NCBI GenBank assembly: GCA_039794845.1
Contig: JAUQVK010000042.1
Coordinates: 1-13,465 of the forward strand
DNA from: Thermostichus sp. DRC_bins_24
GTDB lineage: Bacteria > Cyanobacteriota > Cyanobacteriia > Thermostichales > Thermostichaceae
DNA: 13,465 bases
Direction: 5' to 3'
Below are positions 1 through 10,996 of the stretch, piece after piece. The notes below the pieces were generated by a model. The model was not told where the DNA came from, made no database searches, and saw nothing but the letters and a program-made list of their open reading frames with translations. The translations under genes were made by a program, and so were the position numbers. Position 1 is the stretch's first letter; each line of letters begins with the position of its first letter.

Positions 1-19
1 TCATCAGTGAAGCTATACA

Positions 20-33
20 GCCAATGCTGTCTT
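20..33 (-). promoter_or_regulatory. PAM-flanked guide target overlapping the putative -35 (TTGGCT, 24-19) of the downstream promoter
   Basis: Minus strand AAG-ACAGCATTGGC is an 11/11 match to the spacer 5' end with the canonical I-E PAM AAG. The -10 would fall just outside the window. Confidence 0.75.
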
Positions 34-57
34 CCTGTATGTAATACTGGAAGCACT

Positions 58-83
58 TAATAAGAAGAGTTGAAGCTCACTCT
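58..83 (-). terminator. Possible weak intrinsic terminator after the mini-array
   Basis: Minus strand AGAGTGA-GCT-TCA(A)CTCT forms a short hairpin with one bulge, followed by TCTTATTA. Confidence 0.25.
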
Positions 84-97
84 ATTCAGATTGAAGG

Positions 98-232
98 AAG
101 GACACCCCAAGAGTTGTGGGGAATAACCGATCGCTGGCCGGACTGATGCTGAGAGACGCACCCCCACAGACGTGGGGACAAGCATTCTTCCGGCCAATGC
201 TGTCGGTTCACCCCCATAGGATATGAGGAAAC
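98..232 (-). CRISPR. Degenerate type I-E mini-array: 2 clear repeats and 1 more decayed repeat, with short spacers of 21 and ~26 nt
   Basis: Read on the minus strand: R1 232-204 GTTTCCTCATATCCTATGGGGGTGAACCG, spacer 203-183 ACAGCATTGGCCGGAAGAATG, R2 182-154 CTTGTCCCCACGTCTGTGGGGGTGCGTCT, spacer 153-128, R3 ~127-98 GTTATTCCCCACAACTCTTGGGGTGTCCTT. R1 and R2 are 29 nt. All three keep a C-rich/GGGG stem-loop. R1 ends in the I-E-type 8-nt handle GTGAACCG. Confidence 0.85.
162..211 (-). ncRNA. Predicted ~50-nt crRNA-like regulatory guide (CreA/CreR-like)
   Basis: Inferred from Cas6e-type cleavage 8 nt before each repeat end. The product would be a GUGAACCG handle, the 21-nt spacer and the R2 hairpin. 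Its seed matches two AAG-flanked sites nearby. Confidence 0.7.
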
Positions 233-269
233 TATAGACATCATAGCATGCATTTTGGCGCACTGCCAA
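233..269 (-). promoter_or_regulatory. Sigma70-type promoter for the mini-array
   Basis: Minus strand reads TTGGCA (269-264), 18 bp, then TATGAT (245-240) preceded by the extended -10 TGC. The predicted start at ~233-234 lies immediately before repeat R1 (232). Confidence 0.65.
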
Positions 270-278
270 AGCTGTCTT
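265..278 (-). promoter_or_regulatory. PAM-flanked guide target overlapping the -35 of the mini-array promoter
   Basis: Minus strand AAG-ACAGCtTTGGC against spacer ACAGCATTGGC is 10/11. The only mismatch is at position 6, which is unpaired in Cascade R-loops. Confidence 0.75.
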
Positions 279-334
279 GATGTTTATCCAGGCTGCAAAG
301 GATGATTTGCTGAAAACCATGTGCCAAGTCTCCA

Positions 335-3067
335 TTAGTTTTCTGAATCTTTCTCAATCAGCACCCCCAACAAGGGATCCAGAGTCAGCCGCCAGTCTCC
401 CACCATTGCCACTCCCTGAGCATTGACCTCTACATAGCGGCAGTTGCGCAGTAGGGCCGATGTCCAAGTGGGGGGATTGTGTTGGGCTCTCAACGTTTCC
501 ACCAGTTCCCTCTTAGACAGGCGGGTGCTATGGGCAAGAAGTTTGCGGATCAGGGTCAGGTCAGGACGGGTGTTGAGATCCACCTGTTCTTGGGTACCGG
601 GAAAAAACAGCCCGATCTCAGTGCGTTGCAAAAAGATGGTGGCTACAGAGGGTTCACCTAGGCGGGTGGCAGCAGCGATCGCACTTTCGTCGTCTTCCTT
701 TTTCAGGTAGGTAAACTGGTCGGGCTTGGTATCAGCGTGGGGCGGCGGAATTTTTACCTCATTGGCACGGGTTTGTTTGGCGGCCTCTTCTTCGACCCGG
801 TATTTCTCCAGAGAGGTGCTCCAGTCCTCGGCATGAACCGCCTCCAGTGCTTCAGGAATCGGCATTACCAAGTCATACACCGACTCGATCAGGGTATCCA
901 TCTCCTCGGGTAGTTGCACCTGGGAGCGGTGGCGGAGAGTGAGCCAACTGCGGAGCAGAATATGGCGATCGTAAACATAGCGGCTGTCGCCAAATTCGAC
1001 GGTGCCTTCAGCGGTTAGGGTTGGTTCAATGACCCACAGAGTTGGGGTTCTAAGGGGGGCCGGTCGCCCGTCACGGGTGTGGCGGTGGAGCCGTCCAGAG
1101 CGTTGCAGGAGTAGGTCGATCGGGGCTAGGTCGCTGATCATCAGGTCAAAGTCCACATCCAAACTTTGCTCAATCACCTGGGTAGCTACCAGCACAAAGC
1201 GCTGGGGGCGATGGTCGGTCCCTTTGCCAAATTTTTCTAGGCAGTCCTTTTCAATCCGCTCCCGATCTCTGAAGAGAAAGCGCCCATGAAATAATCCCAG
1301 TTCTTCAGTTGAGAAGTGAGCTTGAAGCTTTTGACAAACGGCCTGGGCACGGTTGACGGTAGAGCAGATTACCGCCACACAGCCGCCTTCGTGGCTCAAT
1401 ACCTGGTGCAGTTCGGCGGCCCATTTATCGTCGTCATTGCTGGCCCAGCGAATCTCTAGGGCGCGGCGAACGTGGTCTGAGGCGGCAAAGGTCTGGGCTA
1501 CGGCTACCCCACTGGAGAAAGCGGTAATCCGAGGATAGGAGGCCTCTGGTAAAGACGGGACGGGCTGGCTACATCCGGTCGCGTAAGCAGTCAATAAGCG
1601 CTGACGGGTAGTGGTGGGCAGTGTTGCCGAGAGGGCAATCACAGGGGATCCCAGCACAGCAGCCCATTCCAAGAAGCGCTCCAGGAGGGTGCTGGTGTAG
1701 AGGTCGTAGGCGTGGATCTCATCGAGAATGACGGTGCGCCCCGCCAGACCAAAGAGGCGCACAAATTGATGGCGCGAGCGCACTACTCCCATCAACCCCT
1801 GGTCTAGGGTGCCCACCCCATAGGGACTGAGTAATGTCCGTTTGCGGGCCGTATGCCATTCGCTGGCAAAGACACCCCGTCCCTCCTCGTCGTAAACCTG
1901 ATCCAAACGACAGACAGTTTCTTGGTACTCCCCCTTGAGGGCAGCGGCCCCGTGGCTGAGGGTGAGATTCACCACCTTGTCGGCATAACGCTTTCGCAAA
2001 AAATCCTGCACCCGCTGAAACATGGCATTGCTCGTGGCTTGGGTGGGCAAGCCAATGTAGAAGCCTCCCGCACCGGCCTGGTGCTGTAAATGATCCGCCA
2101 GGTACAGCGCTGCCTCCGTTTTGCCCTCCCCCATGGAGGCTTCCACCATCACCAGGCAGGGCGGTGTGAGGGTAGCGGTTAGATGAATCGCTGCCTCTTG
2201 CAGGGGACGAGGTGTAGTGATGAACGAAAACAAGTCCGTAAAGTTGAGGGGATTTCCGGTTTCCGGCTGGATCCAGCCCTGGGCTTTGAGGGCAGTTTGG
2301 GCCTTCTGGGTCAGCTCCTTGGCGTAGTCTGCAAAGGGCTGATCGTTGGCATAGGGAAAGCTGGCAGGATTGGAGGCAATCCAGTCAGAGACGGTGGTGA
2401 GTCCTGCCAAAATCATGGCGGCAGCGTTGTCACACTGGTTGGGTAAATCCTCAGAAGTAAGTTGTACAAAGTCCTGAAGTTGCCGAAAAATCTCTAAACT
2501 GTGTTGCCGCCATGCACTGCGCTCATCAGTGCCTGCGATCGCGCTATCCAGGTCATCAATCTCTTGCTGAGCCGGGAAAAAGCCGTGGTGCCCGCCCACA
2601 ATCATCCCCAGTTTACAGGCCAGTCGCTTGGCCTGACGCTTAGATAAATCTCGACCAACTCCAATGGTCACCAGAAAATCTGGCAACGTGGCCGCAGTCA
2701 CCAACCCGTGGGGGGCATTTCGGGGTCTGCGGCGTTCTGGGGGCAATGAAGCCCATCCATCATACAGACCCGCTCCCACCAAGGCTTTCCCCACTTCGCT
2801 CACCTGAAACTGAAAGGCAGGACTGACTTTGCCTAAGTCGTGGCTCCCGGCCATGAAGCCGCAGAAGCGCACTAGGGATCCGTCATTGGGTAATCCCAAT
2901 CCTTGGGCGAGGCGCAGGCGAGCGACCGAACTCAGGTATGTCTTGACAATCTCCATCGCCACTGCCGCTGTATCTGCCAGGTGGCAGATCACCGGATGGT
3001 AATTAGGCTGGCCATTGTCTCTGAACTGTCCCTGCCCTGTCTTGGCCCAAAATCGTGGCTGACTCAT
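335..3067 (-). CDS. cas3: CRISPR-associated nuclease/helicase Cas3 (HD + SF2 helicase), type I-E-like
   Basis: 910-aa ORF. The N-terminal HD domain shows FWAK, HLAD, HDLGK, HG, HHG and SDW motifs. The helicase shows Walker A ASMGEGKTE, LPTQATSNAM, DEIH, SAT, HGRF, TQVIEQSLDVDFD and QRSGRLHRH. AGGAG lies 8 nt upstream of the ATG, which overlaps the WYL gene stop (ATGA, 3064-3067). Confidence 0.97.
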   Translation of the reverse strand: MSQPRFWAKTGQGQFRDNGQPNYHPVICHLADTAAVAMEIVKTYLSSVARLRLAQGLGLPNDGSLVRFCGFMAGSHDLGKVSPAFQFQVSEVGKALVGAGLYDGWASLPPERRRPRNAPHGLVTAATLPDFLVTIGVGRDLSKRQAKRLACKLGMIVGGHHGFFPAQQEIDDLDSAIAGTDERSAWRQHSLEIFRQLQDFVQLTSEDLPNQCDNAAAMILAGLTTVSDWIASNPASFPYANDQPFADYAKELTQKAQTALKAQGWIQPETGNPLNFTDLFSFITTPRPLQEAAIHLTATLTPPCLVMVEASMGEGKTEAALYLADHLQHQAGAGGFYIGLPTQATSNAMFQRVQDFLRKRYADKVVNLTLSHGAAALKGEYQETVCRLDQVYDEEGRGVFASEWHTARKRTLLSPYGVGTLDQGLMGVVRSRHQFVRLFGLAGRTVILDEIHAYDLYTSTLLERFLEWAAVLGSPVIALSATLPTTTRQRLLTAYATGCSQPVPSLPEASYPRITAFSSGVAVAQTFAASDHVRRALEIRWASNDDDKWAAELHQVLSHEGGCVAVICSTVNRAQAVCQKLQAHFSTEELGLFHGRFLFRDRERIEKDCLEKFGKGTDHRPQRFVLVATQVIEQSLDVDFDLMISDLAPIDLLLQRSGRLHRHTRDGRPAPLRTPTLWVIEPTLTAEGTVEFGDSRYVYDRHILLRSWLTLRHRSQVQLPEEMDTLIESVYDLVMPIPEALEAVHAEDWSTSLEKYRVEEEAAKQTRANEVKIPPPHADTKPDQFTYLKKEDDESAIAAATRLGEPSVATIFLQRTEIGLFFPGTQEQVDLNTRPDLTLIRKLLAHSTRLSKRELVETLRAQHNPPTWTSALLRNCRYVEVNAQGVAMVGDWRLTLDPLLGVLIEKDSEN

Positions 3068-4038
3068 GGCCGTTTCTCCTGTTGATACTGGGCCTGCATT
3101 CTTCTAATCTCCTCCTTCACCATCTCCACCAACTCCGGGGGATCCAGTACCCGCGCCCCTTTGCCGTAGTACATCACCCACCGCTTCACCTCCTGCAGCC
3201 CCCGCACCACCACATGCAACCTCAGGGATCCCTCGGGAAGTTCCTCAATCACCTGCGTGGCATGCCAGTGCCGCTCCCGAATGTAGGGGGCCGTGGCCGC
3301 ATCAAACTCAATCACCACCTCCTGCGGGATCCCGCCCACCTCATGTTGAAAGGCCGACTCCAGATGGGCCTCCCGGTCAAACTTGGGATCCACCTCAAAG
3401 CGCACGTCCAGGAGCTTGATCGCCTGGATGCGATCCACCCGAAACCAGCGAGGCTCGCCCCGGAGGTGACACCAGCCCGTCACATAGGGGTTACTGCGGG
3501 AAAAATGCAGCACATAGGGATCCAACTCCCGCTCGGAGGGGGGCTTACCGGGGGTGGCATAGCGCATCCACACCCGCCGCTGCTGCTGACAGGCCTGCTC
3601 CAACACCTGCCAGATTTCCGGGTTGAGATCCAGCTCCGCCCCCACCCGAAACAGGATGTGCTCCTGGGCCAACTGCTGCAAATCCACCCAGGCTTGCTCC
3701 GGGATCCGCTGCGCCAACTGCTGGATGGCCGATTGCAACTGCGAGCGATAGGCCGAGCCGGCATAGGCCGCCAGCATTCTGGCCCCTAGGGTGAGGGCAA
3801 ACAGTTCCCCCTCGGTCAGTGGAATCGAGGGCAAGCGCCAGGCGGGATCCGTGTAGTGAAACCCCCGTGCTTTCGAAAACTGAATGGGAGCCTGGAATCG
3901 ATCCTTCAAAAACTGAATATCGGCTCTGACCGTCCGTTCGCTCACCTCCAAAGCTTCTGCCAGCAATAGGGCAGTCGGTCGGGGATGACTGCGCAGGATC
4001 TCATCCAGTTTCAAGGCCCGTTCTAATTGACGTAGCAT
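3064..4038 (-). CDS. HTH-WYL(-WCX) transcriptional regulator (YafY/PafB-like), CRISPR-associated
   Basis: 324 aa. It has an N-terminal winged HTH (LAEALEVSERTVRADIQFL) and a WYL core (ERELDPY...YVTGWCHLRGEPRWFRVDRI). The C-terminus is WCX-like (WVMYYGKGARVLDPPEL). There is a 4-nt overlap with the cas3 start. Confidence 0.93.
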   Translation of the reverse strand: MLRQLERALKLDEILRSHPRPTALLLAEALEVSERTVRADIQFLKDRFQAPIQFSKARGFHYTDPAWRLPSIPLTEGELFALTLGARMLAAYAGSAYRSQLQSAIQQLAQRIPEQAWVDLQQLAQEHILFRVGAELDLNPEIWQVLEQACQQQRRVWMRYATPGKPPSERELDPYVLHFSRSNPYVTGWCHLRGEPRWFRVDRIQAIKLLDVRFEVDPKFDREAHLESAFQHEVGGIPQEVVIEFDAATAPYIRERHWHATQVIEELPEGSLRLHVVVRGLQEVKRWVMYYGKGARVLDPPELVEMVKEEIRRMQAQYQQEKRP

Positions 4039-4063
4039 TACTTACTCTGAAGAGGATGAGAGC

Positions 4064-4085
4064 ATTCTAGGCAACTCACCCGGCA
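4064..4085 (-). promoter_or_regulatory. Putative promoter of the WYL-cas3 operon with a -26-type element
   Basis: Minus strand TGCCGG-N10-TAGAAT ends 25 nt upstream of the WYL ATG. No canonical -35 is present at 17-bp spacing (GCGTTT). Confidence 0.5.
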
Positions 4086-4169
4086 AAAACGCTTCCGACC
4101 TGCCGAAGCTTAATCTCAAAGATCAAAGATTGAAAAACGTATCTGATCATTCAGAGATCATTCAGCCCC

Positions 4170-5552
4170 ATGAGCGGGATGATCACCCCTCAGCTGGGTA
4201 AAGGGTGGGCAAATCACCCACAGACCATGATGACCAGACAGTACACTGAACGCGAGTCAACCCCCGTCGAAAGGTCTATGGATACGGATCGATCTGAATC
4301 CCCTGCTATCCTTTTTGGGCTACCCGCTTCCCAAGGCAGATGGATCCTGATTCCCCTGGGCATCCTCGTCTTGTTGTGCCTGGGAACGGTCTATTCCTGG
4401 AGCATCTTCAGGATCCCCCTCGAAGCGGAACTGGGGATCCCAGCCGGGGATAGCCTGCTGCCCTATACTTTTGCCCTGGTTTTCTACGCTGCCCTAATGC
4501 CGATCACCGGTTTTTGGATCCCCCGCTGGGGATCCCGCCGGGTGCTGGCGGTTGGGGGCTGCTTAGTGGGATTGGGCTATAGTTTGGCCAGCTTTGCCGA
4601 TTCGATTGGGTTGATGACCCTCTGCTACGGCGCCATTGCCGGCAGTGGGGTAGGGATTGCCTATGGGGTGCCGATGGTGGTGGCCGCCCGTTGGTTTCCG
4701 GAGCGCAAAGGGTTGGCGGTGGGATCCACCATTATCGGTTTTGGCTTGTCTCCATTGGTCACAGCGCCGCTGGCCAATCAATGGATCGCTTCGTTCGGGG
4801 TGAGGGCAACTTTGCTGATCTTGGGTTTGCTATTTACAGCGGTGATTGTAGCGATCTCCACCCAATTGAAATTGCCTCCACCCAACTGGATCCCGGCTCC
4901 AATTCAATCAATTCAATCAAAAGAATCTCTGGGTAAAACAGATAAAATTCCTGATGAACCTATCTCCGGTTATTCCCCCCCGCTATTCAAAAGTAAGTCT
5001 TTTTATGGGCTGTGGATCTGCTATGCCATCGGCACATTGATTGGTTTAAGTGCCATCGGTATTTCCAGCCCAGTGGGGGAAGAAATGATCCACTTGGATC
5101 CCACGGCAGCCGCTAGGAGTGTAGCCCTGTTTGCGGTTTTCAACGGGCTCAGTCGGCCTTTATTCGGTTGGTTGGCGGATCGTTTTCAACCTGCTCAGGT
5201 AACCATCGGATCCTATGGGTTGGTACTGCTGGCTTCTGGGCTGATGATTCTGTCGGGATCCCTTCTCTCCTACTGGGTGGCCTTTTCGATCCTGTGGTTT
5301 TGTCTGGGGGGCTGGCTGGCGATGGCGCCCACCTTGACCCTGCGTTTGTTTAACCCGGATCGCTACGCCCAGAACTACGGCATTGTCTTCACCGCTTATG
5401 GGGTGGGTGCCCTAACCGGAACCCTGATCACAGGTCGAATCCGGGATAGCTTTGGCAGCTACAGCTACACCTTTTACGGCATGGTCCTTCTGGCTGTTCT
5501 CGGGATCCTCGTGGCGAGGGGATTACTTAAGCCCGCAGTGACAATGGGATAG
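4170..5552 (+). CDS. MFS transporter, oxalate:formate antiporter (OFA) / lactate transporter-like
   Basis: About 12 hydrophobic segments with OFA-type motifs LGTVYSWSIF, GSGVGIAYG, RWFPERKGLAVG..IIGFG, FNGLSRPLFGWLADR and NYGIVFTAYGVG. The true start may be the ATG at 4278 (MDTDRS). Confidence 0.88.
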   Translation: MSGMITPQLGKGWANHPQTMMTRQYTERESTPVERSMDTDRSESPAILFGLPASQGRWILIPLGILVLLCLGTVYSWSIFRIPLEAELGIPAGDSLLPYTFALVFYAALMPITGFWIPRWGSRRVLAVGGCLVGLGYSLASFADSIGLMTLCYGAIAGSGVGIAYGVPMVVAARWFPERKGLAVGSTIIGFGLSPLVTAPLANQWIASFGVRATLLILGLLFTAVIVAISTQLKLPPPNWIPAPIQSIQSKESLGKTDKIPDEPISGYSPPLFKSKSFYGLWICYAIGTLIGLSAIGISSPVGEEMIHLDPTAAARSVALFAVFNGLSRPLFGWLADRFQPAQVTIGSYGLVLLASGLMILSGSLLSYWVAFSILWFCLGGWLAMAPTLTLRLFNPDRYAQNYGIVFTAYGVGALTGTLITGRIRDSFGSYSYTFYGMVLLAVLGILVARGLLKPAVTMG

Positions 5553-5680: not shown

Positions 5681-7234
5681 ATGTCCACTCCCTCTAGCAG
5701 CAGCGAAGCTGCCCAACGTTCCGCCCGCCTGGAAAAAGCCCAACACCTGCAGGAACAAGGGATCCTTCCCTACGCCTATTCCTTTGCGGTTACCCATTTG
5801 GCTGCAGACTTACAAGAGAAATTTGCCGATCTAGAGCCCGGTGCCGAACGCGAGGATGTACAGGTGGCCGTGGCAGGGCGGATTCGGGCGCGGCGGGTTA
5901 TGGGCAAGCTGGCCTTTTTCACCCTGCAGGATCGCTCCGGCAGCATTCAGCTCTACCTGGAGAAAAAACGGCTGACGGAGCAGATGGGAGAGCTGGCTTT
6001 TAAGAACCTGGATAAATTGATCGACTCCGGCGACTGGATTGGGGCCAAGGGCTGCCTAAAGCGCACCGAAAAAGGGGAACTGTCGGTACGGGTGGACGAA
6101 TATCAGGTGCTCACCAAAGCGCTCTTGCCTTTGCCAGACAAGTGGCATGGCCTGCGGGATGTGGAGAAACGCTACCGCCAGCGCTACGTGGATTTGATCG
6201 TCAACCCCGAGGTGAAACAAACCCTGATCGATCGGGCCAAGACCATTCAGTCGCTGCGACAAACCCTGGAAGAGCAGGGGTTTGTGGAGATCGAAACACC
6301 GGTTTTGCAGGTGATCCCCGGCGGAGCCGAGGCACGGCCCTTCATCACCCATCACAATGCTTTGGATTTGGATCTGTACCTGCGCATCGCCACCGAATTG
6401 CACCTGAAGCGGTTGGTGGTGGGGGGCCTCGAGCGGGTTTACGAGATCGGGCGTATTTTCCGCAATGAAGGCATTTCCACCCGCCACAACCCGGAGTTTA
6501 CTTCGCTGGAGGTGTATCAAGCCTTCGCCGATTACCACACGATGATGGATTTGACGGAGACCCTGATCTGCAATGCTGCCCAAAGTGTGCGCGGATCCCT
6601 ACACCTAACTTATCAAGGGGAAGCCATCGACCTCACTCCCCCTTGGCGGCGAGTGACGATGCAGGATCTGGTGGAAGAGGTGACCGGGATCCGAATTGAG
6701 GTGGAAACTGAACCCACAGAAGCTCTCTTGGCCTCTTTGAAACAGTTGGGGATCCCGGATTTGGCGGCACAAGACTCGGCGGGCAAGTTGCTGGTGAAAG
6801 CCTTCGAGCACTGTTGTGAAGACCGCCTGCGCCAGCCCACCTTTGTGTTGGACTATCCGGTGGAGGTCTCTCCCCTAACCAAACCCCACCGCCGCAAGCC
6901 AGGGTTAGCAGAGCGTTTTGAGCTGTTTATCGTCGGGCGAGAGACGGCCAACGCCTATTCTGAGCTGACGGATCCGGTGGATCAGCGGCAACGGCTCGAG
7001 GCACAAGCGGCCCTGAAAGCTGCAGGTGATGAAGAAGCCCATTTTTTGGATGAAGACTTCCTCACCGCTCTGGAATACGGCCTCCCCCCCACAGGCGGCA
7101 TGGGCATGGGGATCGACCGGCTGGTGATGCTCCTCTGTGATGCCCCCAGCATTCGGGATGTGATCGCCTTTCCCCTGCTGCGGCCCGAAGCCCTGGAAGC
7201 CTCTTCCGGTCGTGCGGAGCACGATGAAACCTAA
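5681..7234 (+). CDS. lysS: Lysine--tRNA ligase (class II)
   Basis: OB-fold anticodon domain ([14 protein letters not shown]), followed by [35 protein letters not shown], motif 2 [15 protein letters not shown] and motif 3 [20 protein letters not shown]. Confidence 0.98.
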
Positions 7235-7246
7235 GCGGGATTCCTT

Positions 7247-10200
7247 TCAGCCCACCTGCCCTTCTTCCCAGAGACGGCCTTCATACCCCTGTAGCTTGAG
7301 GGCGGTCTGAAAATCCTGACAGGCTCCCTGCCAATCTCCGCCGGCAGAGCGGGCCAAAGCGCGATTGAGGTGAGCCTTGAGATGGTGGGGATCCCGTTCG
7401 ATCACCTGCGTGTAATCACGAATGGCCGACTGAAAATTCCCCTGCTGCGCCTGAGCATAGCCGCGATTGTTCAGCACCCAGAGCCTTTCCTGGGGTTCCA
7501 ACTCCAGGTGTAGCAGCTGCGTGTAATCTTCAATGGCTCTGGGAAGGTCTCCAGAGCGATCCCACAACAAAGCGCGGGAGAGCAAGGCCTGCTGCTCCTG
7601 GGGGTTCAAGATCAGAGCCTGGGTGTAGTCGGCGATGGCCAGATCGATGCTGTGGGCTTGCCGGTGCAGATCCCCCCGTTGACGGTAAGCCAGGGCCGCA
7701 TCGGCCATGCCCCAGTCGCGATTGCGGTTCAGGGCTTGGGTTAGATCCTCGAAGGCCGCCGCCCCATCCCCCAGAGCCTGTTGCACGGTCGCCCGCAGCG
7801 CAAACCCCTGCGAAGCATCCGGTTGTCGTTGGATCACCACTGTGAAATCGGTCAGCGCCCCGGGCCAATCCCCCACCTGCTGGCGAGATAGCCCCCGATA
7901 CAACAATGCCTCGGTCACCAAGGGATCCCGCTCCCCACGGTTCTCATGAATGGTCAGCTCCAGCACCCGATCCAGATCGGCCATCGCTCCGGCTGCGTTT
8001 TGGCGGAGATAGCGGGTTTGGCCCCGTTTCAGGTGCGCTTCCAAATGCTGCGGTTGCCCCTGAATCACCAGGTCAAAGTCGGTTTCTGCCTCTGCATACC
8101 GCCCCAGTTGCAACAACAGGGATCCACGGGCCAGGCGGGCCATCAGGTGCTGGGGATCCCGTTGTAGGGCGCGGCTCAGATCTTGTAGGGCCGCTTCCCC
8201 CTGGCCCAACTGTTGCAAGGCTTGCCCCCGCCGCCACAGGGCTTCGGTATGGTCGGGATCCTGCTGCAAAACCTGACTTAAATCCTCAACGCCGGAGGCC
8301 GAGTTACCCAGCTGCAAATGGGCGATGCCCCGCCCCAACCAAGCCGCCCAAGCCTGAGGTGAGCCAGGCCCTAACCCACGCGGATTCTGCTGCAAGACCC
8401 GGTCGTAATCGGCAACCGCCTCTTGCCAATGGCCCAAGCGCTGGTGCAGCTCCGCCCGCTCCAGGTAGAGATCCCACAGATCCGGTTCCAAGCACAAGGC
8501 CTGGTTCAAATCCTGCAACGCCGCTTCCAGATCCCCGGCTTGCGCCCTTGCCCGCGCCAGCTCCCGATAAAGTTGTGCTTGGGCCAGCTCCACCCCCAGC
8601 TCCAAAGCCCGGCTGTAGTCATGGGTAGCCCCCTGCACATCCCCGAGGGCGGTTCGCACCTGGCCGCGATGCAAATACGCCAGCCCCAAATTCGGATCCC
8701 GTTGCAGAGCTTGATCCAAATCCGCGAGCGCCCCCTGCCAGTCCCCCTGACGTTGCCGCGCCATCCCCCGCCGCAAATGAGCACTCACCAGCCATTCTGG
8801 CCCGCGGGGGCGGGCCAGATTCTGGCCCGTGGAGATCCCAGGCTGGGCAGCCAACTGCAGCACCCGCGAAAAATCCGCACAGGCATCGCCCCACTCTCCG
8901 TGGTCAAAATGGGCGTTGCCCCGGTTCAGGAAAAGCTGTGGATTGTCGGGATCCCGTTCTAGGGCGGCGGTGTAGTCTTGCAGGGCCGCCACCGGGTTCC
9001 CCAGAAGCAAATGCACCCGCCCACGACTGCTGTAGGCGGTGGCATCTTCGGGATCCAGAGCAATCGCTTGGCCAAAATCCGCAAGGGCCGCCTCGATATT
9101 GCCCAAATCCAGGTGGGCGATCCCCCGATTCAAAAAGGCTTTTGCCTCCTGCGGATCCCATTGAAGGGTACGGTTGAAGTCTTCTAGGGCAGCAGCTGGA
9201 TCCCCGAGCCCTTGACGAGCCAAGCCCCGGTACAGATAGGCCCGCGATAACTCCGGGTTTAAGTCGATGGCCCGTCCACAATCGGCAAGTACCGAGTCGA
9301 GGGCGTTGTTGCCCATGTGGGCGATGGCGCGATTCAGGTAGAGCTGCGCTTGACCGGCAGGATCCTGGTCACTCAGCTCGATTGCCCGAGAAAAGTCTTC
9401 TACCGCCCCCGACCAATCTCCCAGGCCCTGACGGGCCAAGCCGCGGTGGTAATAGGCCTTGCTCTGCTGGGGATCCAACCGCAGCACTTGGGTATAGTCC
9501 TCAACACCCCCCGCCAGATCCAGCAAATTCACCCGCGCCACCCCGCGGTTGAAATAGGCCTCCACATCCTGGGGATCCCGTTTGAGCACCTCCGAAAAGT
9601 CTTCCGCTGCCCCCCGCGAATCACCTAGGTTGCCCCGCACCACCCCCCGGTTGAAATAGGCGCGCGTATCCTCCGGATTCAGTTCAATCGCCCGCGAATA
9701 ATCGTCAATCGCCTGCTGCTGCTGATTCAGTTGTCGGTGGGCATTGCCACGGTTGTAATAGGCCACGGCCCATTGCGGGTTAAGGCTGAGGGCTTGGCTG
9801 TAATCGGCAACGGATCCCTCGTAGTCCTCCAGACGGTAGCGGGCGATGCCCCGGTTGAAATAGGCGCGCGCATCCCCGGCCAACTGGATCACTTGTGTGT
9901 AATCTTCGATGGCCCCCGCCAGATCTCCAATTTTGTAGCGGGCGATCCCCCGTTGGCTGTAAGCACGGCTGTCTTTGGGATCCAGCTGAATCGCCAGGGT
10001 ATAGTCGGCAATCGCCCCCATCGGATCCCCTTGGCGGGCTTTATCCTGACCACGGGCCAAAAGGCGCGTCACCAAAACCTGATCCACCCCGACATCGGGA
10101 AGGATGGATTCGTTGTGGGTGGGCAACAGAGGGCGCAACGCCTCCAGCACCTCAGCAGCCGACTGAAAGCGATCCTGCCAGCGGGGGCGAATCATGCGAT

Positions 10201-10996
10201 CGAGAATATCCGCCAGCTCATCGCTCACCTGCACCCGATCCCGCCAGAGCAATTGGCCGGTGCGAGGGTCATCGCGGATTTTGTTGGGGGTGCGCCCCGT
10301 CAGCGCTTGAATGGCCAGCACCCCAAGGGAGTAAAGATCACTGCAGGGTTGCGGTTTACCGTTCAACTGTTCTGCCGGCATGTACCCAACCGAGCCGATC
10401 ACCGTTGCCAACTGGGTTTGGCCGGGGGCATGGCTCACCAACATCCCCACTTCCTTCACCGCCCCAAAGTCGATCAACACCAACTTGCCGTCGGCATCGC
10501 GGCGCATCAGGTTGGCGGGCTTGATATCGCGGTGCACAATGTGGTGGGCATGGACATGGCGCAAAATGTCCAAAACATCTCGCAGCAGTTCCAGCACTTC
10601 CGCCTCGCTAAACGGCTTGCCTGAAACCATCTCATGGCTGAGATCATGCCCGGCAACAAACTCCTGCACCAGATAAAAGTCATGATTCTGCTCGAAGTGG
10701 GCCAACAGGCGCGGCACCCGATCATAGTGGTTGAGCTGGTTGAGAACCTTGGCTTCCCGTTCAAACAGTTTGCGAGCCGTGGCCAAGGTATAGGGATCTG
10801 TTGAAAGGGGACGCAGACGCTTGACAACACAGGGGGTATTGAACGTGTCTTGATCCACCGCCTTATAGGTCACGCCAAATCCACCCTCTCCCAAGGGATT
10901 GAGAATGCGGTAGCGCCCCCTCAGAACCGTTCCCGCTCTGACCCGGTCATCCATAGCTGAAGCCAATGCTGCTGCAAGCTGGCTCGATTTTGCCAC
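7247..10996 (-). CDS. Hanks-type (Pkn2-like) Ser/Thr protein kinase with a long C-terminal TPR array
   Basis: Kinase motifs LGEGGFGVTY, VVK, HRDIKPAN, DFG, GYMPAE and DLYSLG. These are followed by ~930 aa of 34-aa TPR units (AY.NRG.....LG....A..DY..AL.L.P). The start may be the ATG at 10954 rather than the GTG at 10996. Confidence 0.93.
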   Translation of the reverse strand: MAKSSQLAAALASAMDDRVRAGTVLRGRYRILNPLGEGGFGVTYKAVDQDTFNTPCVVKRLRPLSTDPYTLATARKLFEREAKVLNQLNHYDRVPRLLAHFEQNHDFYLVQEFVAGHDLSHEMVSGKPFSEAEVLELLRDVLDILRHVHAHHIVHRDIKPANLMRRDADGKLVLIDFGAVKEVGMLVSHAPGQTQLATVIGSVGYMPAEQLNGKPQPCSDLYSLGVLAIQALTGRTPNKIRDDPRTGQLLWRDRVQVSDELADILDRMIRPRWQDRFQSAAEVLEALRPLLPTHNESILPDVGVDQVLVTRLLARGQDKARQGDPMGAIADYTLAIQLDPKDSRAYSQRGIARYKIGDLAGAIEDYTQVIQLAGDARAYFNRGIARYRLEDYEGSVADYSQALSLNPQWAVAYYNRGNAHRQLNQQQQAIDDYSRAIELNPEDTRAYFNRGVVRGNLGDSRGAAEDFSEVLKRDPQDVEAYFNRGVARVNLLDLAGGVEDYTQVLRLDPQQSKAYYHRGLARQGLGDWSGAVEDFSRAIELSDQDPAGQAQLYLNRAIAHMGNNALDSVLADCGRAIDLNPELSRAYLYRGLARQGLGDPAAALEDFNRTLQWDPQEAKAFLNRGIAHLDLGNIEAALADFGQAIALDPEDATAYSSRGRVHLLLGNPVAALQDYTAALERDPDNPQLFLNRGNAHFDHGEWGDACADFSRVLQLAAQPGISTGQNLARPRGPEWLVSAHLRRGMARQRQGDWQGALADLDQALQRDPNLGLAYLHRGQVRTALGDVQGATHDYSRALELGVELAQAQLYRELARARAQAGDLEAALQDLNQALCLEPDLWDLYLERAELHQRLGHWQEAVADYDRVLQQNPRGLGPGSPQAWAAWLGRGIAHLQLGNSASGVEDLSQVLQQDPDHTEALWRRGQALQQLGQGEAALQDLSRALQRDPQHLMARLARGSLLLQLGRYAEAETDFDLVIQGQPQHLEAHLKRGQTRYLRQNAAGAMADLDRVLELTIHENRGERDPLVTEALLYRGLSRQQVGDWPGALTDFTVVIQRQPDASQGFALRATVQQALGDGAAAFEDLTQALNRNRDWGMADAALAYRQRGDLHRQAHSIDLAIADYTQALILNPQEQQALLSRALLWDRSGDLPRAIEDYTQLLHLELEPQERLWVLNNRGYAQAQQGNFQSAIRDYTQVIERDPHHLKAHLNRALARSAGGDWQGACQDFQTALKLQGYEGRLWEEGQVG

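Follow-up and report, generated by a model that had tools for sequence, protein, structure and literature searches.

Regulatory mini-arrays are a recently recognised route by which CRISPR-Cas systems sense their own effector pool and respond to anti-CRISPRs. In class 2 systems the non-canonical guide tracr-L is said to rely on a partial match to convert Cas9 into a repressor that acts on the promoter of the cas operon, much as we propose here for a type I-E guide; tracr-L reportedly differs in its RNA architecture and in having the cas9 promoter, not its own, as its target.

The closest type I-E counterpart is CreR of Salmonella enterica (Liu et al., 10.1101/2023.03.10.532045). As far as the available preprint text describes it, CreR is a degenerate mini-CRISPR that adjoins the Cascade genes; the 5′ handle survives in its pseudo-repeat 1 and the 3′ handle in its pseudo-repeat 2. 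[quoted passage not shown] All of these properties are seen or predicted in the module described here. The mini-arrays of Escherichia coli type I-E and Pseudomonas aeruginosa type I-F1 (Shmakov et al., 10.1101/2023.03.03.530964 / PMC10120712) are, in the available text, likewise intergenic beside cas3 and cas8, with two repeat-like units, a canonical PAM and a seed match that tolerates a sixth-position mismatch, and they too are predicted to autoregulate effector genes. The CreA guide of Haloarcula hispanica type I-B controls more than one transcription unit from a single guide-binding site (10.1101/2023.03.10.532045). That system differs from the present one in being archaeal and of type I-B and in having an RNA toxin as the controlled partner, and the guide's own promoter is not described as a target in the available text of that preprint.

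We analysed a stretch of 13 465 nucleotides from the cyanobacterium Thermostichus sp. DRC_bins_24, referred to here as the window. Two genes on the minus strand define the setting.

3064–4038, minus strand, HTH-WYL-WCX transcription regulator, the end of which overlaps the start of cas3 by 4 nt
335–3067 (stop codon 337–335), minus strand, cas3, with HD nuclease, helicase and Cas3 C-terminal domains (Pfam)

The regulator matches the Pfam families WYL (3.4e-21), WCX (4.5e-21) and HTH_11 (4e-07), while cas3 matches Cas3_HD (1.1e-41), Cas3-like_C_2 (1.2e-37) and Cas3_C (5.5e-13). Cas3 relatives at 53–84% identity are followed by casA, casB and cas7e annotated as type I-E; the best match in a search of genome contigs is 84% identical. 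The cas3–cas8e junction is readable in 14 loci of this genome scan, and three of these (L003, L011 and L012) contain a mini-array homologous to the one described below. Two of 205 matching plasmid records were inspected (L017 and L018) and both carry it; in both, the genes following cas3 are annotated as type I-E and the regulator is found at the same position. No Cascade genes, cas6e or canonical array lie within the window. The Cas3 domains are present in the window itself and the 29 nt repeat type and the Cascade genes are known via the relatives, from which an intact type I-E system at this locus is assumed.

Directly 3′ of cas3, inside the cas locus, two repeat-like units (233–204 and 182–154) flank one spacer-like unit (203–183) on the minus strand, followed by more degenerate material.

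204–233 (start at 233 or 232), minus strand, pseudo-repeat 1, with a degenerate hairpin and a final 8 nt (GTGAACCG) equal to the canonical repeat end
183–203, minus strand, 21 nt pseudo-spacer psiS, the putative guide (ACAGCATTGGCCGGAAGAATG)
154–182, minus strand, pseudo-repeat 2, with the hairpin CCCCAC-GTCT-GTGGGG intact and the final 8 nt degenerate
128–153, minus strand, second spacer-like stretch, in which 150–133 is an imperfect inverted copy of psiS (anti-psiS)
97–127, orientation ambiguous, pseudo-repeat 3, strongly degenerate, with 21 identities on the minus strand versus 19 on the plus strand

Pseudo-repeats 1 and 2 each share 24 identities with the 29 nt canonical repeat of eight related arrays. 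Compared with that repeat, the handle is kept by pseudo-repeat 1 and the hairpin half by pseudo-repeat 2, the hairpin of which is also predicted in the fold. The canonical arrays of the relatives have a period of ∼61–64 nt and therefore spacers of ∼32–35 nt. psiS has 21 nt; for viruses, the literature text available to us reports type I-E regulatory guides with lengths of 24 and 21 nt. psiS and anti-psiS are predicted to fold together with a z-score of −3.45, and the same arrangement is seen in L003 and L017. A decayed copy of the 5′ end of cas8e is also seen in the module. Neither an AAG-flanked nor a seed-matching site was found for the second spacer-like unit or for a plus-strand guide, in either reading. 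A 92-amino-acid ORF (57–335) runs across the mini-array and is treated as spurious, because the relatives have non-coding sequence or other reading frames there and the ORF has no Pfam match. Rfam returned no family at gathering score for the whole window. A search of phage records with the 206 nt module in distant mode gave no match, so no viral mimic was detected in those records. On the whole, the region 233–97 probably represents a degenerate regulatory mini-CRISPR belonging to a cyanobacterial type I-E system, one of the elements that the literature calls CreR, regulatory mini-arrays or crRNA-like RNAs, and works by the mechanism proposed below.

Two places in the window are candidate targets of psiS.

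276–278, minus strand, AAG PAM of site A
255–275, minus strand, site A, protospacer-like target of psiS, matching positions 1–5, 7–11 and 13, with mismatches at 6 and 12 and at most of the positions after 13
18–33, minus strand, site B, with AAG at 33–31 and a match to psiS at positions 1–11 and 13

Positions 275–263 of site A read ACAGCTTTGGCAG. A seed match beside the subtype PAM, the arrangement found in CreR, is thus present at both 278–263 and 33–18; AAG is the canonical type I-E PAM in the available texts of both preprints (10.1101/2023.03.10.532045; 10.1101/2023.03.03.530964 / PMC10120712). In an unmasked search of both strands, the best two non-self matches to psiS 1–13 are site B (30–18; 12 of 13) and site A (275–263; 11 of 13). 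Five further places in the window match at 10 of 13 positions and none of them has AAG. The sequence AAGACAGCNTTGGC is present twice against 0.04 expected, a number reached by one of 200 shuffles, and only 3.4e-6 AAG sites matching all 11 paired positions are expected within ±200 nt. The match between guide and site is not a chance event and goes well beyond one. Among matches with at most one mismatch at the ten masked seed positions there is no other AAG-flanked psiS target, including upstream of the WYL gene and of cas3. The gene preceded by site B lies beyond the end of the window, which is 17 nt past the site. The preliminary description of the feedback loop leaves site B out of account.

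Site A coincides with a promoter-like element directed towards the mini-array.

264–269, minus strand, −35-like hexamer TTGGCA, equal to protospacer positions 7–12
240–248, minus strand, extended −10 TGC-TATGAT (TG at 248–247, TATGAT at 245–240) from the consensus scan
233–234, minus strand, predicted transcription start, 6–7 nt past the −10 hexamer
254–270, no strand, inverted repeat TTTGGC-N5-GCCAAA, overlapping the −35 and probably incidental

The element was called with σ70-type criteria (hexamers 16–18 nt apart, an optional TG extension and a start 6–8 nt downstream), which register a consensus match only. TTGGCA-18-TATGAT has ten of 12 consensus matches plus the TG extension and is the sole promoter-like match in 1–4300 on both strands. 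By itself the consensus occurs at chance frequency (one found versus a shuffle mean of 1.9); only the position of the promoter-like element is informative. TATGAT ends 7 nt before pseudo-repeat 1, which puts the predicted start 0–2 nt before the repeat. This agrees with the preliminary description, which had placed an AAG-flanked site over a TTGGCA −35 that lies 18 nt from an extended −10, with a start 1–2 nt before the first repeat and a nearly leaderless transcript.

The target site is retained among the relatives. Four of the five, all four cyanobacterial (L003, L011, L012 and L017), have one AAG site 71–87 nt 5′ of psiS, and AAG flanks all eight guide-matching sites in six loci. Guide and site co-change at all six variable paired positions (1, 2, 4, 5, 9 and 10) across the window and these four relatives; a cognate pair matches at 11 of 11 paired positions and non-cognate pairs at 6–10. 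Within positions 1–13 of the eight sites, 12 of the 13 mismatches fall at position 6 or 12. The paired positions agree in 87 of 88 cases, positions 6 and 12 in four of 16; since the five modules are homologous, these sites are not independent samples, and a binomial estimate based on them overstates the significance. In the available text on type I-F1, every sixth position is stated to make no contribution to pairing (10.1101/2023.03.03.530964 / PMC10120712).

The relation of the site to the promoter-like element varies between loci. In three loci (the window, L003 and L017) the scan calls a match on the array strand, with 6–7 nt between its end and pseudo-repeat 1. L017 has the same TTGGCA hexamer and 18 nt spacing as the window, and its −35 again equals protospacer positions 7–12. 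In L003 the 21 nt protospacer stops 2 nt upstream of the −35. The earlier placement of the site on the −35 thus holds for the window and L017 but is not universal. No forward-strand promoter is called by the scan in L011 and L012, where the elements TTGACT-18-TAAGTT and TGC-TAATCT are seen by eye only. TGCTA followed by a T three bases on can be seen by eye in all four aligned loci; the MAFFT alignment did not put the L003 copy of the −10 in register. The predicted leader is ∼0–6 nt in the window, L003, L011, L012 and L017. Downstream, L017 has a homologous second AAG site that, as in the window, lies between the mini-array and the downstream genes. Two sites arranged in this way are carried by pREC1 of Acaryochloris marina MBIC10699. 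L018 has its sole AAG site downstream of the mini-array, which means that targeting of its own promoter is not required among these homologous mini-arrays.

From the sequence we infer the following mechanism. The promoter-like element (269–240) would start an RNA at ∼233–234, at the first base of pseudo-repeat 1. Cas6e would then cleave each of the two repeat hairpins at its base and release a guide of ∼50 nt that consists of the 8 nt handle GUGAACCG, the 21 nt psiS and the hairpin of pseudo-repeat 2. Loaded into Cascade, this guide would recognise AAG and two 5 nt segments at site A (278–263) and site B (33–18). The complex is predicted to bind as a repressor and not to license cleavage by Cas3, because complementarity ends at position 13 of a short 21 nt guide. 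Bound at site A, it would lie over the guide promoter from −42 to −22, where it would occlude the −35 and also block any read-through from cas3. The guide, together with anything co-transcribed with it, would come under negative feedback, and site B would bring the downstream gene or genes, probably those of the Cascade operon, under the same control. Through site A, which would act on the guide plus any read-through, and through site B the window may control more than one transcription unit, as CreA does.

Negative feedback on guide production is the most natural reading, because the AAG, the seed match, the covariation, the position of the site on or next to a promoter-like element and the leader of ∼0–6 nt would all fit it. 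The preliminary description had proposed such a loop as a buffer of the guide level. The AAG, the seed match, the covariation and the site at the promoter speak for its feedback part, whereas a loop that concerns the guide level alone is unlikely, as the targeted promoter is the sole visible one for cas8e in L011 and L012.

Several aspects set the module apart from the described systems. The S. enterica target lies ∼140 bp upstream of casA, on a casA promoter fragment, while the conserved site here is 5′ of the guide gene. In the available account of the S. enterica experiments CreR is made from a separate promoter, whereas here the site is on the promoter-like element predicted to make the guide. 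The match comprises 15 consecutive nucleotides in S. enterica and 5+5+1 nucleotides here, with mismatches at 6 and 12; the present module further differs in its cyanobacterial host and in the two sites of the window. For Shmakov et al. the predicted target is in the cas8 promoter, downstream of the mini-array (10.1101/2023.03.03.530964 / PMC10120712), in contrast to the 5′ position here, and according to the available text there are no additional targets in the cases that they examined, compared with two sites in the window (PMC10120712). Their main text does not contain the terms ‘upstream of the mini-array’, ‘mini-array promoter’ or ‘feedback’, and cyanobacterial names are absent both there and from the available part of the supplement text (PMC10120712). 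Our literature search found no type I regulatory guide that targets its own promoter; CreR Figs S6–S8, the supplementary tables of Shmakov et al. and the journal versions could list cases. Nor did this search, which covered preprint texts, turn up any account of a cyanobacterial type I-E mini-array. The module is best read as a regulatory mini-array of the CreR type. Its new feature would be the place of the operator, on the promoter immediately 5′ of the guide gene; in the type I-E cases published so far it is downstream, in the casA or cas8 promoter region.

The strongest competing explanation, which we consider possible but would not favour, is that the targeted promoter is that of the Cascade (cas8e) operon, with the mini-array as a passenger in its 5′ leader and guide buffering as a by-product. 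In the window, site A overlaps the mini-array's own promoter-like element. In L011 and L012 the site lies upstream of cas8e, the ATG of which follows the end of pseudo-repeat 2 by ∼160 nt and 35 nt, respectively, and there is no other forward promoter-like match. Furthermore, the window mini-array has no terminator-like site 3′ of it, and the CreR targets in the available preprint text are in or next to effector-gene promoters (10.1101/2023.03.10.532045). On the other hand, the window and L017 have a second AAG site ahead of the downstream genes, which suggests that these have a control point of their own, and the long stem of psiS and anti-psiS after pseudo-repeat 2 in the window, L003 and L017 could limit read-through. 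For L011 and L012, guide and Cascade would be repressed together, as in Cas autorepression of the CreR type where the guide is part of the operon leader, because the targeted promoter appears to be the only visible one for the Cascade operon.

More tentatively, guide feedback could form part of a layered dosage controller that combines a self-limiting guide with a conserved operator, site B for the downstream genes and pairing of anti-psiS with the guide. Such a controller might stop immune crRNAs from being outcompeted for Cascade by the regulatory guide and yet let the guide report Cascade availability, although this too is a conjecture that we hold loosely. Here anti-psiS would pair with psiS around the hairpin of pseudo-repeat 2. 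The mismatch pattern of site B differs from that of site A. No self-limiting layered design is described for CreR or regulatory mini-arrays in the portions of the preprint texts compared.

It is unlikely that the promoter-like element is inactive and that cas3 read-through makes the mini-array, with site A as a roadblock that meters transcription into the mini-array and the Cascade genes. The absence of a terminator-like site between the cas3 stop codon (337–335) and 278 and the chance frequency of the promoter consensus would allow this, and bound Cascade should attenuate read-through as well, going by the available preprint text (10.1101/2023.03.10.532045). However, a promoter-like match stands 6–7 nt before pseudo-repeat 1 in three loci. 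In L011 and L012 a divergent brnTA pair, encoded on the opposite strand, lies between cas3 and the module. The site and a −10-like element are kept there even though brnTA rules out cas3 read-through, which argues that the promoter itself is targeted.

The same brnTA pair raises the question of a CreTA-type safeguard, in which the guide would repress a toxin gene and site A or B would be the toxin promoter. The CreA site of H. hispanica lies between the toxin promoter and the cas8 promoter in the available text (10.1101/2023.03.10.532045), and the site in L011 and L012 is ∼50–65 nt from the start of the divergent brnT toxin gene, so that these two loci may resemble CreA in using one site for the divergent brnTA and the mini-array. 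We nevertheless give this explanation little chance for the module as a whole. No brnTA or toxin-like gene adjoins the module in the window, L003 or L017, where only a weak, partly broken HTH-like ORF is seen, and the predicted transcript of the site A promoter is the mini-array itself. No toxin-like ORF is seen in 1–335, where the 92-amino-acid ORF has no Pfam match, although the gene after site B lies outside the window; lack of a coupled toxin gene is what separates CreR from CreA.

Slightly less credible still is that the inverted repeat at 254–270 serves as the operator and is recognised by a protein, for example the WYL regulator encoded nearby, with the guide match being secondary. The repeat is present as the preliminary description had it and overlaps the −35, and an HTH-WYL regulator adjoins cas3 in the window, L017 and L018. 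However, the window contains 31 equally good repeats (perfect 6 nt arms, loops of 3–8 nt), the equivalent regions of L003, L011, L012 and L017 (four of four relatives) lack it, and no copy of the motif is seen by eye in 4038–4170 upstream of the regulator gene. The inverted repeat was rejected as a conserved operator, being specific to the window and of ordinary frequency. Finally, a functionless relic of duplication or of spacer self-acquisition hardly deserves consideration as the origin of the psiS/site similarity, since the duplicated-looking parts of the module (the inverted psiS copy and the decayed copy of the cas8e 5′ end) are outweighed by covariation at six of six variable paired positions, free drift at positions 6 and 12 and an AAG kept at eight of eight sites.

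If the guide does repress its own promoter, simple repression would become a doubly closed loop in which guide and effector rise and fall together and the regulator is capped. Predictions of how the system responds to crRNA competition and anti-CRISPR attack would change accordingly. The covariation across five loci, together with the free drift at positions 6 and 12, provides a clean natural readout of the 5+1 pairing rule of Cascade. A match of 5+5+1 nucleotides plus a PAM would then be the minimal match used by evolution for the binding without cleavage that we propose here, and such a minimal match may be useful for the design of type I CRISPR-interference guides.

The cas3 gene of this type I-E-like locus is followed on the minus strand by a degenerate mini-array, arranged as follows.

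4038–3064, minus: HTH-WYL-WCX regulator gene (Pfam), overlapping the start of cas3
3067–335, minus: cas3 (Pfam)
233–204, minus: pseudo-repeat 1, first unit of a decayed CRISPR-like array 3' of cas3
203–183, minus: psiS, a 21 nt pseudo-spacer (the guide) between pseudo-repeats 1 and 2
182–154, minus: pseudo-repeat 2
153–128, minus: second spacer-like stretch, 26 nt
about 127–97, minus: third repeat, very degenerate

The canonical arrays of eight related cyanobacterial loci are long and have a 29 nt repeat, GTTGTCCCCAC-N4-GTGGGGGTGAACCG, with a period of ∼61–64 nt. The hairpin of pseudo-repeat 1 is degenerate and its final eight bases, GTGAACCG, are those of the canonical repeat end; pseudo-repeat 2 has kept the hairpin and lost the last eight bases. 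The CreR preprint (10.1101/2023.03.10.532045) reports the same split of conservation across two repeats. No Rfam family matches anywhere in the window. The third repeat resembles the canonical repeat about equally on either strand (21 versus 19 identities); in plus-strand reading, a handle-like AATAACCG (122–129) forms its end, and a search for targets of the plus-strand spacer beside it found none. The WYL-type HTH regulator directly 5' of cas3 (4 nt overlap in the window) is conserved in position in both annotated relatives, the plasmid loci L017 (1991–2962) and L018 (2024–2989).

When psiS positions 1–13 were scanned unmasked against both strands of the window, the top two non-self matches were both AAG-flanked and both adjoin the mini-array: site B, downstream (30–18), scores 12/13 and site A, upstream (275–263), scores 11/13. 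Five further places in the window score 10/13, none of them with an AAG. The pattern AAGACAGCNTTGGC occurs twice against 0.04 expected, and the expected number of AAG-flanked matches to all 11 paired positions (psiS 1–5, 7–11 and 13) within ±200 nt is 3.4e-6. The match between psiS and its sites is not due to chance.

Site A lies on the −35 of a promoter-like element, as the preliminary description had claimed: the AAG (278–276), ACAGCTTTGGCAG (275–263) and TTGGCA (269–264) are all present, and the proposed 18 nt spacing to an extended −10 is borne out by TG at 248–247 and TATGAT at 245–240. A consensus scan returned the same element (10/12 matches, TG present) as the sole promoter-like site in 1–4300 on both strands; such a match alone is unremarkable, as shuffles of the region average 1.9, and only its position is informative. 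TATGAT ends 7 nt short of pseudo-repeat 1, so the start is predicted at 233–234, just before this repeat as previously suggested, and the transcript would be essentially leaderless. The inverted repeat TTTGGC-N5-GCCAAA, also pointed out earlier, is found at 254–270. This repeat is ordinary: the window holds 31 perfect inverted repeats with 6 nt arms and 3–8 nt loops, and the corresponding region of the four relatives lacks one in every case (0/4). The many families of direct repeats spaced by 102 nt in the window are due to the TPR repeats of a 1249-aa protein (7247–10996, minus) with an N-terminal Ser/Thr protein kinase domain and a long TPR run, which is unrelated to the mini-array finding.

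A scan of genome contigs with Cas3 gave 16 loci, with a readable cas3–cas8e junction in 14 (L006 and L007 end inside cas3). At 11/14 junctions cas8e follows cas3 directly, after a short gap or after a brnA-like gene, and no repeat-like hairpin was found at these 11; a homologous mini-array is present at 3/14 (L003, L011 and L012). BrnA-like starts after cas3 also occur in L001, L010 and L014. Two of the 205 matching records from a plasmid protein search were examined and both carry a mini-array, L017 being Acaryochloris marina pREC1 and L018 a Synechococcus elongatus plasmid. The modules of the window, L003, L011 and L012 can be aligned from the PAM to the end of pseudo-repeat 2 and therefore share ancestry, and L017 has, by eye, the same layout as the window. 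Right after the cas3 stop, the window (335–285, minus) and L003 (12735–12780) contain a look-alike of a decayed cas8e 5' end (M.F....WI versus MSFNL....WIPVV in relatives), although the resemblance is weak. The module may have been inserted just inside cas8e, duplicating the cas8e start.

Self excluded, the local psiS of L003, L011, L012 and L017 likewise finds its best match in an AAG-flanked site, 71–87 nt 5' of psiS. Guide positions 1–5/7–11 in the five loci read ACAGC/TTGGC, GCAGC/TTCGC, GTAGC/TTGCC, GTAAT/TTGAC and GTAGC/TTGGC, and each site tracks its own guide, with covariation at all six variable paired positions (6/6). Cognate guide/site pairs agree at 11/11 paired positions and non-cognate pairs at 6–10/11; tracking is altogether absent at positions 6 and 12. 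Across eight AAG sites in six loci, 12 of the 13 mismatches within positions 1–13 fall at 6 or 12; matches are found at 87/88 paired positions and at 4/16 of positions 6 and 12. A binomial figure of 2e-9 for this pattern overstates independence, the sites being homologous. The pattern is the one that pairing in 5 nt segments would be expected to leave; for type I-F1, Shmakov et al. (10.1101/2023.03.03.530964 / PMC10120712) describe each sixth position as making no contribution. We regard this as strong evidence that the sites are selected for binding by guide-loaded Cascade.

The sites are placed relative to the promoter-like elements as follows.

Window: TTGGCA-18-TATGAT with TG (consensus scan); −35 hexamer at protospacer positions 7–12
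L017: TTGGCA-18-TATCGT with TG (consensus scan); −35 hexamer at protospacer positions 7–12
L012: TTGACT-18-TAAGTT (by eye, under the scan threshold); site placed as in the window
L011: TGC-TAATCT, 5 nt nearer the site (by eye, no scan match); −35 region at about protospacer positions 3–8
L003: TTGTCA-18-TAGAGT with TG (consensus scan); 21 nt protospacer stops 2 nt upstream of the −35

A site on the −35 hexamer itself is thus seen strictly in the window and L017 and by eye in L012, but not in L003. A −10-like hexamer lies 6–13 nt 5' of pseudo-repeat 1 in 5/5 loci, and the predicted leaders are therefore ∼0–6 nt. What holds clade-wide is a target on or against a putative promoter directly 5' of the mini-array.

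From the anatomy, PAM, covariation and 6/12 pattern, which are observed directly, we infer every biochemical step of the following scheme. The promoter (269–240) would initiate transcription at ∼233, and Cas6e cleavage at both hairpin bases would release a guide of ∼50 nt (8 nt handle, 21 nt psiS and 21 nt hairpin end). Guide-loaded Cascade would bind the AAG and two 5 nt segments and, with a guide this short and complementary only up to position 13, it should not trigger Cas3. Bound at site A, the complex would span about −42 to −22 of the promoter and additionally stop any read-through from cas3, as no terminator-like site was found between cas3 and 278.

The proposal that this loop buffers the guide level agrees with the site on the guide's own promoter but is too narrow, and the earlier interpretation is only partly supported, although the observation behind it is confirmed. 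The cas8e start codon follows the end of pseudo-repeat 2 by 35 nt in L012 and ∼160 nt in L011. The consensus scan found no other forward promoter-like match in these two loci, and a divergent brnT/brnA pair between cas3 and the module excludes read-through from cas3 there. In both, then, the Cascade operon has no visible promoter other than the targeted one. The mini-array would thus lie in the operon leader, with guide and Cascade repressed jointly. The brnT/brnA pair (Pfam BrnT_toxin 2.3e-28, BrnA_antitoxin 3.8e-09) is on the minus strand of the loci (L011 8817–9319, L012 2634–3166), transcribed away from the mini-array, with the brnT start ∼50–65 nt from the guide target site. This target could also affect the brnT promoter.

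The window and L017 differ in that a second such site, again with AAG, lies downstream of the mini-array.

Window 33–18, minus: site B, matching psiS positions 1–11 and 13
L017, protospacer from 5964, AAG 5961–5963: second site, matching positions 1–8, 10, 11 and 13–17

L003 has a degraded homologous copy (5 mismatches in 18, by eye). The arrangement fits a separate control point for downstream genes, with site A left to the guide's promoter. The window stops 17 nt past site B, and the gene controlled would lie outside it; site B has a TTGGCT hexamer at protospacer positions 7–12, and any −10 element would be beyond the window end. In L003 (13076–13390) and L017 (∼6100–6230) the stretch from the downstream site to cas8e contains a small HTH-like frame. 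All its Pfam HTH matches are under the curated cut-offs, it has no ATG start in L003 and, in our reading, it is absent from the listed ORFs of L017. In the window, an inverted but imperfect version of psiS (anti-psiS) at 150–133 (minus) is predicted to pair with psiS (200–181) in a stem surrounding the pseudo-repeat 2 hairpin. The stem z-scores are −3.45 in the window, −6.3 in L003 (12906–12980) and −2.1 in L017 (5806–5875), and the pairing is absent from L011 and L012. The loci with anti-psiS are those with the second downstream site, degraded in L003. The stem could limit read-through or alter processing.

The module belongs to the CreR kind of regulatory mini-array. According to the CreR preprint (10.1101/2023.03.10.532045), the S. 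enterica I-E CreR target, ∼140 bp upstream of casA, has an AAG and 15 consecutive matching nucleotides, the tests expressed CreR from a separate promoter, and in Haloarcula two divergent promoters flank one CreA site. The target in E. coli I-E and in P. aeruginosa I-F1 is downstream of the mini-array, within the cas8 promoter, according to 10.1101/2023.03.03.530964 / PMC10120712. L018, with a downstream site only, shares this published layout. What sets the window's clade apart from the S. enterica, E. coli and P. aeruginosa cases is a conserved operator located 5' of the gene for the guide and on that gene's own promoter-like element; the two-site version and the cyanobacterial host are further differences from published cases. 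Full-text literature searches, which covered supplementary figures and tables only partly, found no description of an own-promoter-targeting, two-site, cyanobacterial mini-array, and our claim of novelty is limited to the readable literature. To the specialist, the covariation and the self-targeted promoter are a neat case, which extends an established principle and does not depart from it.
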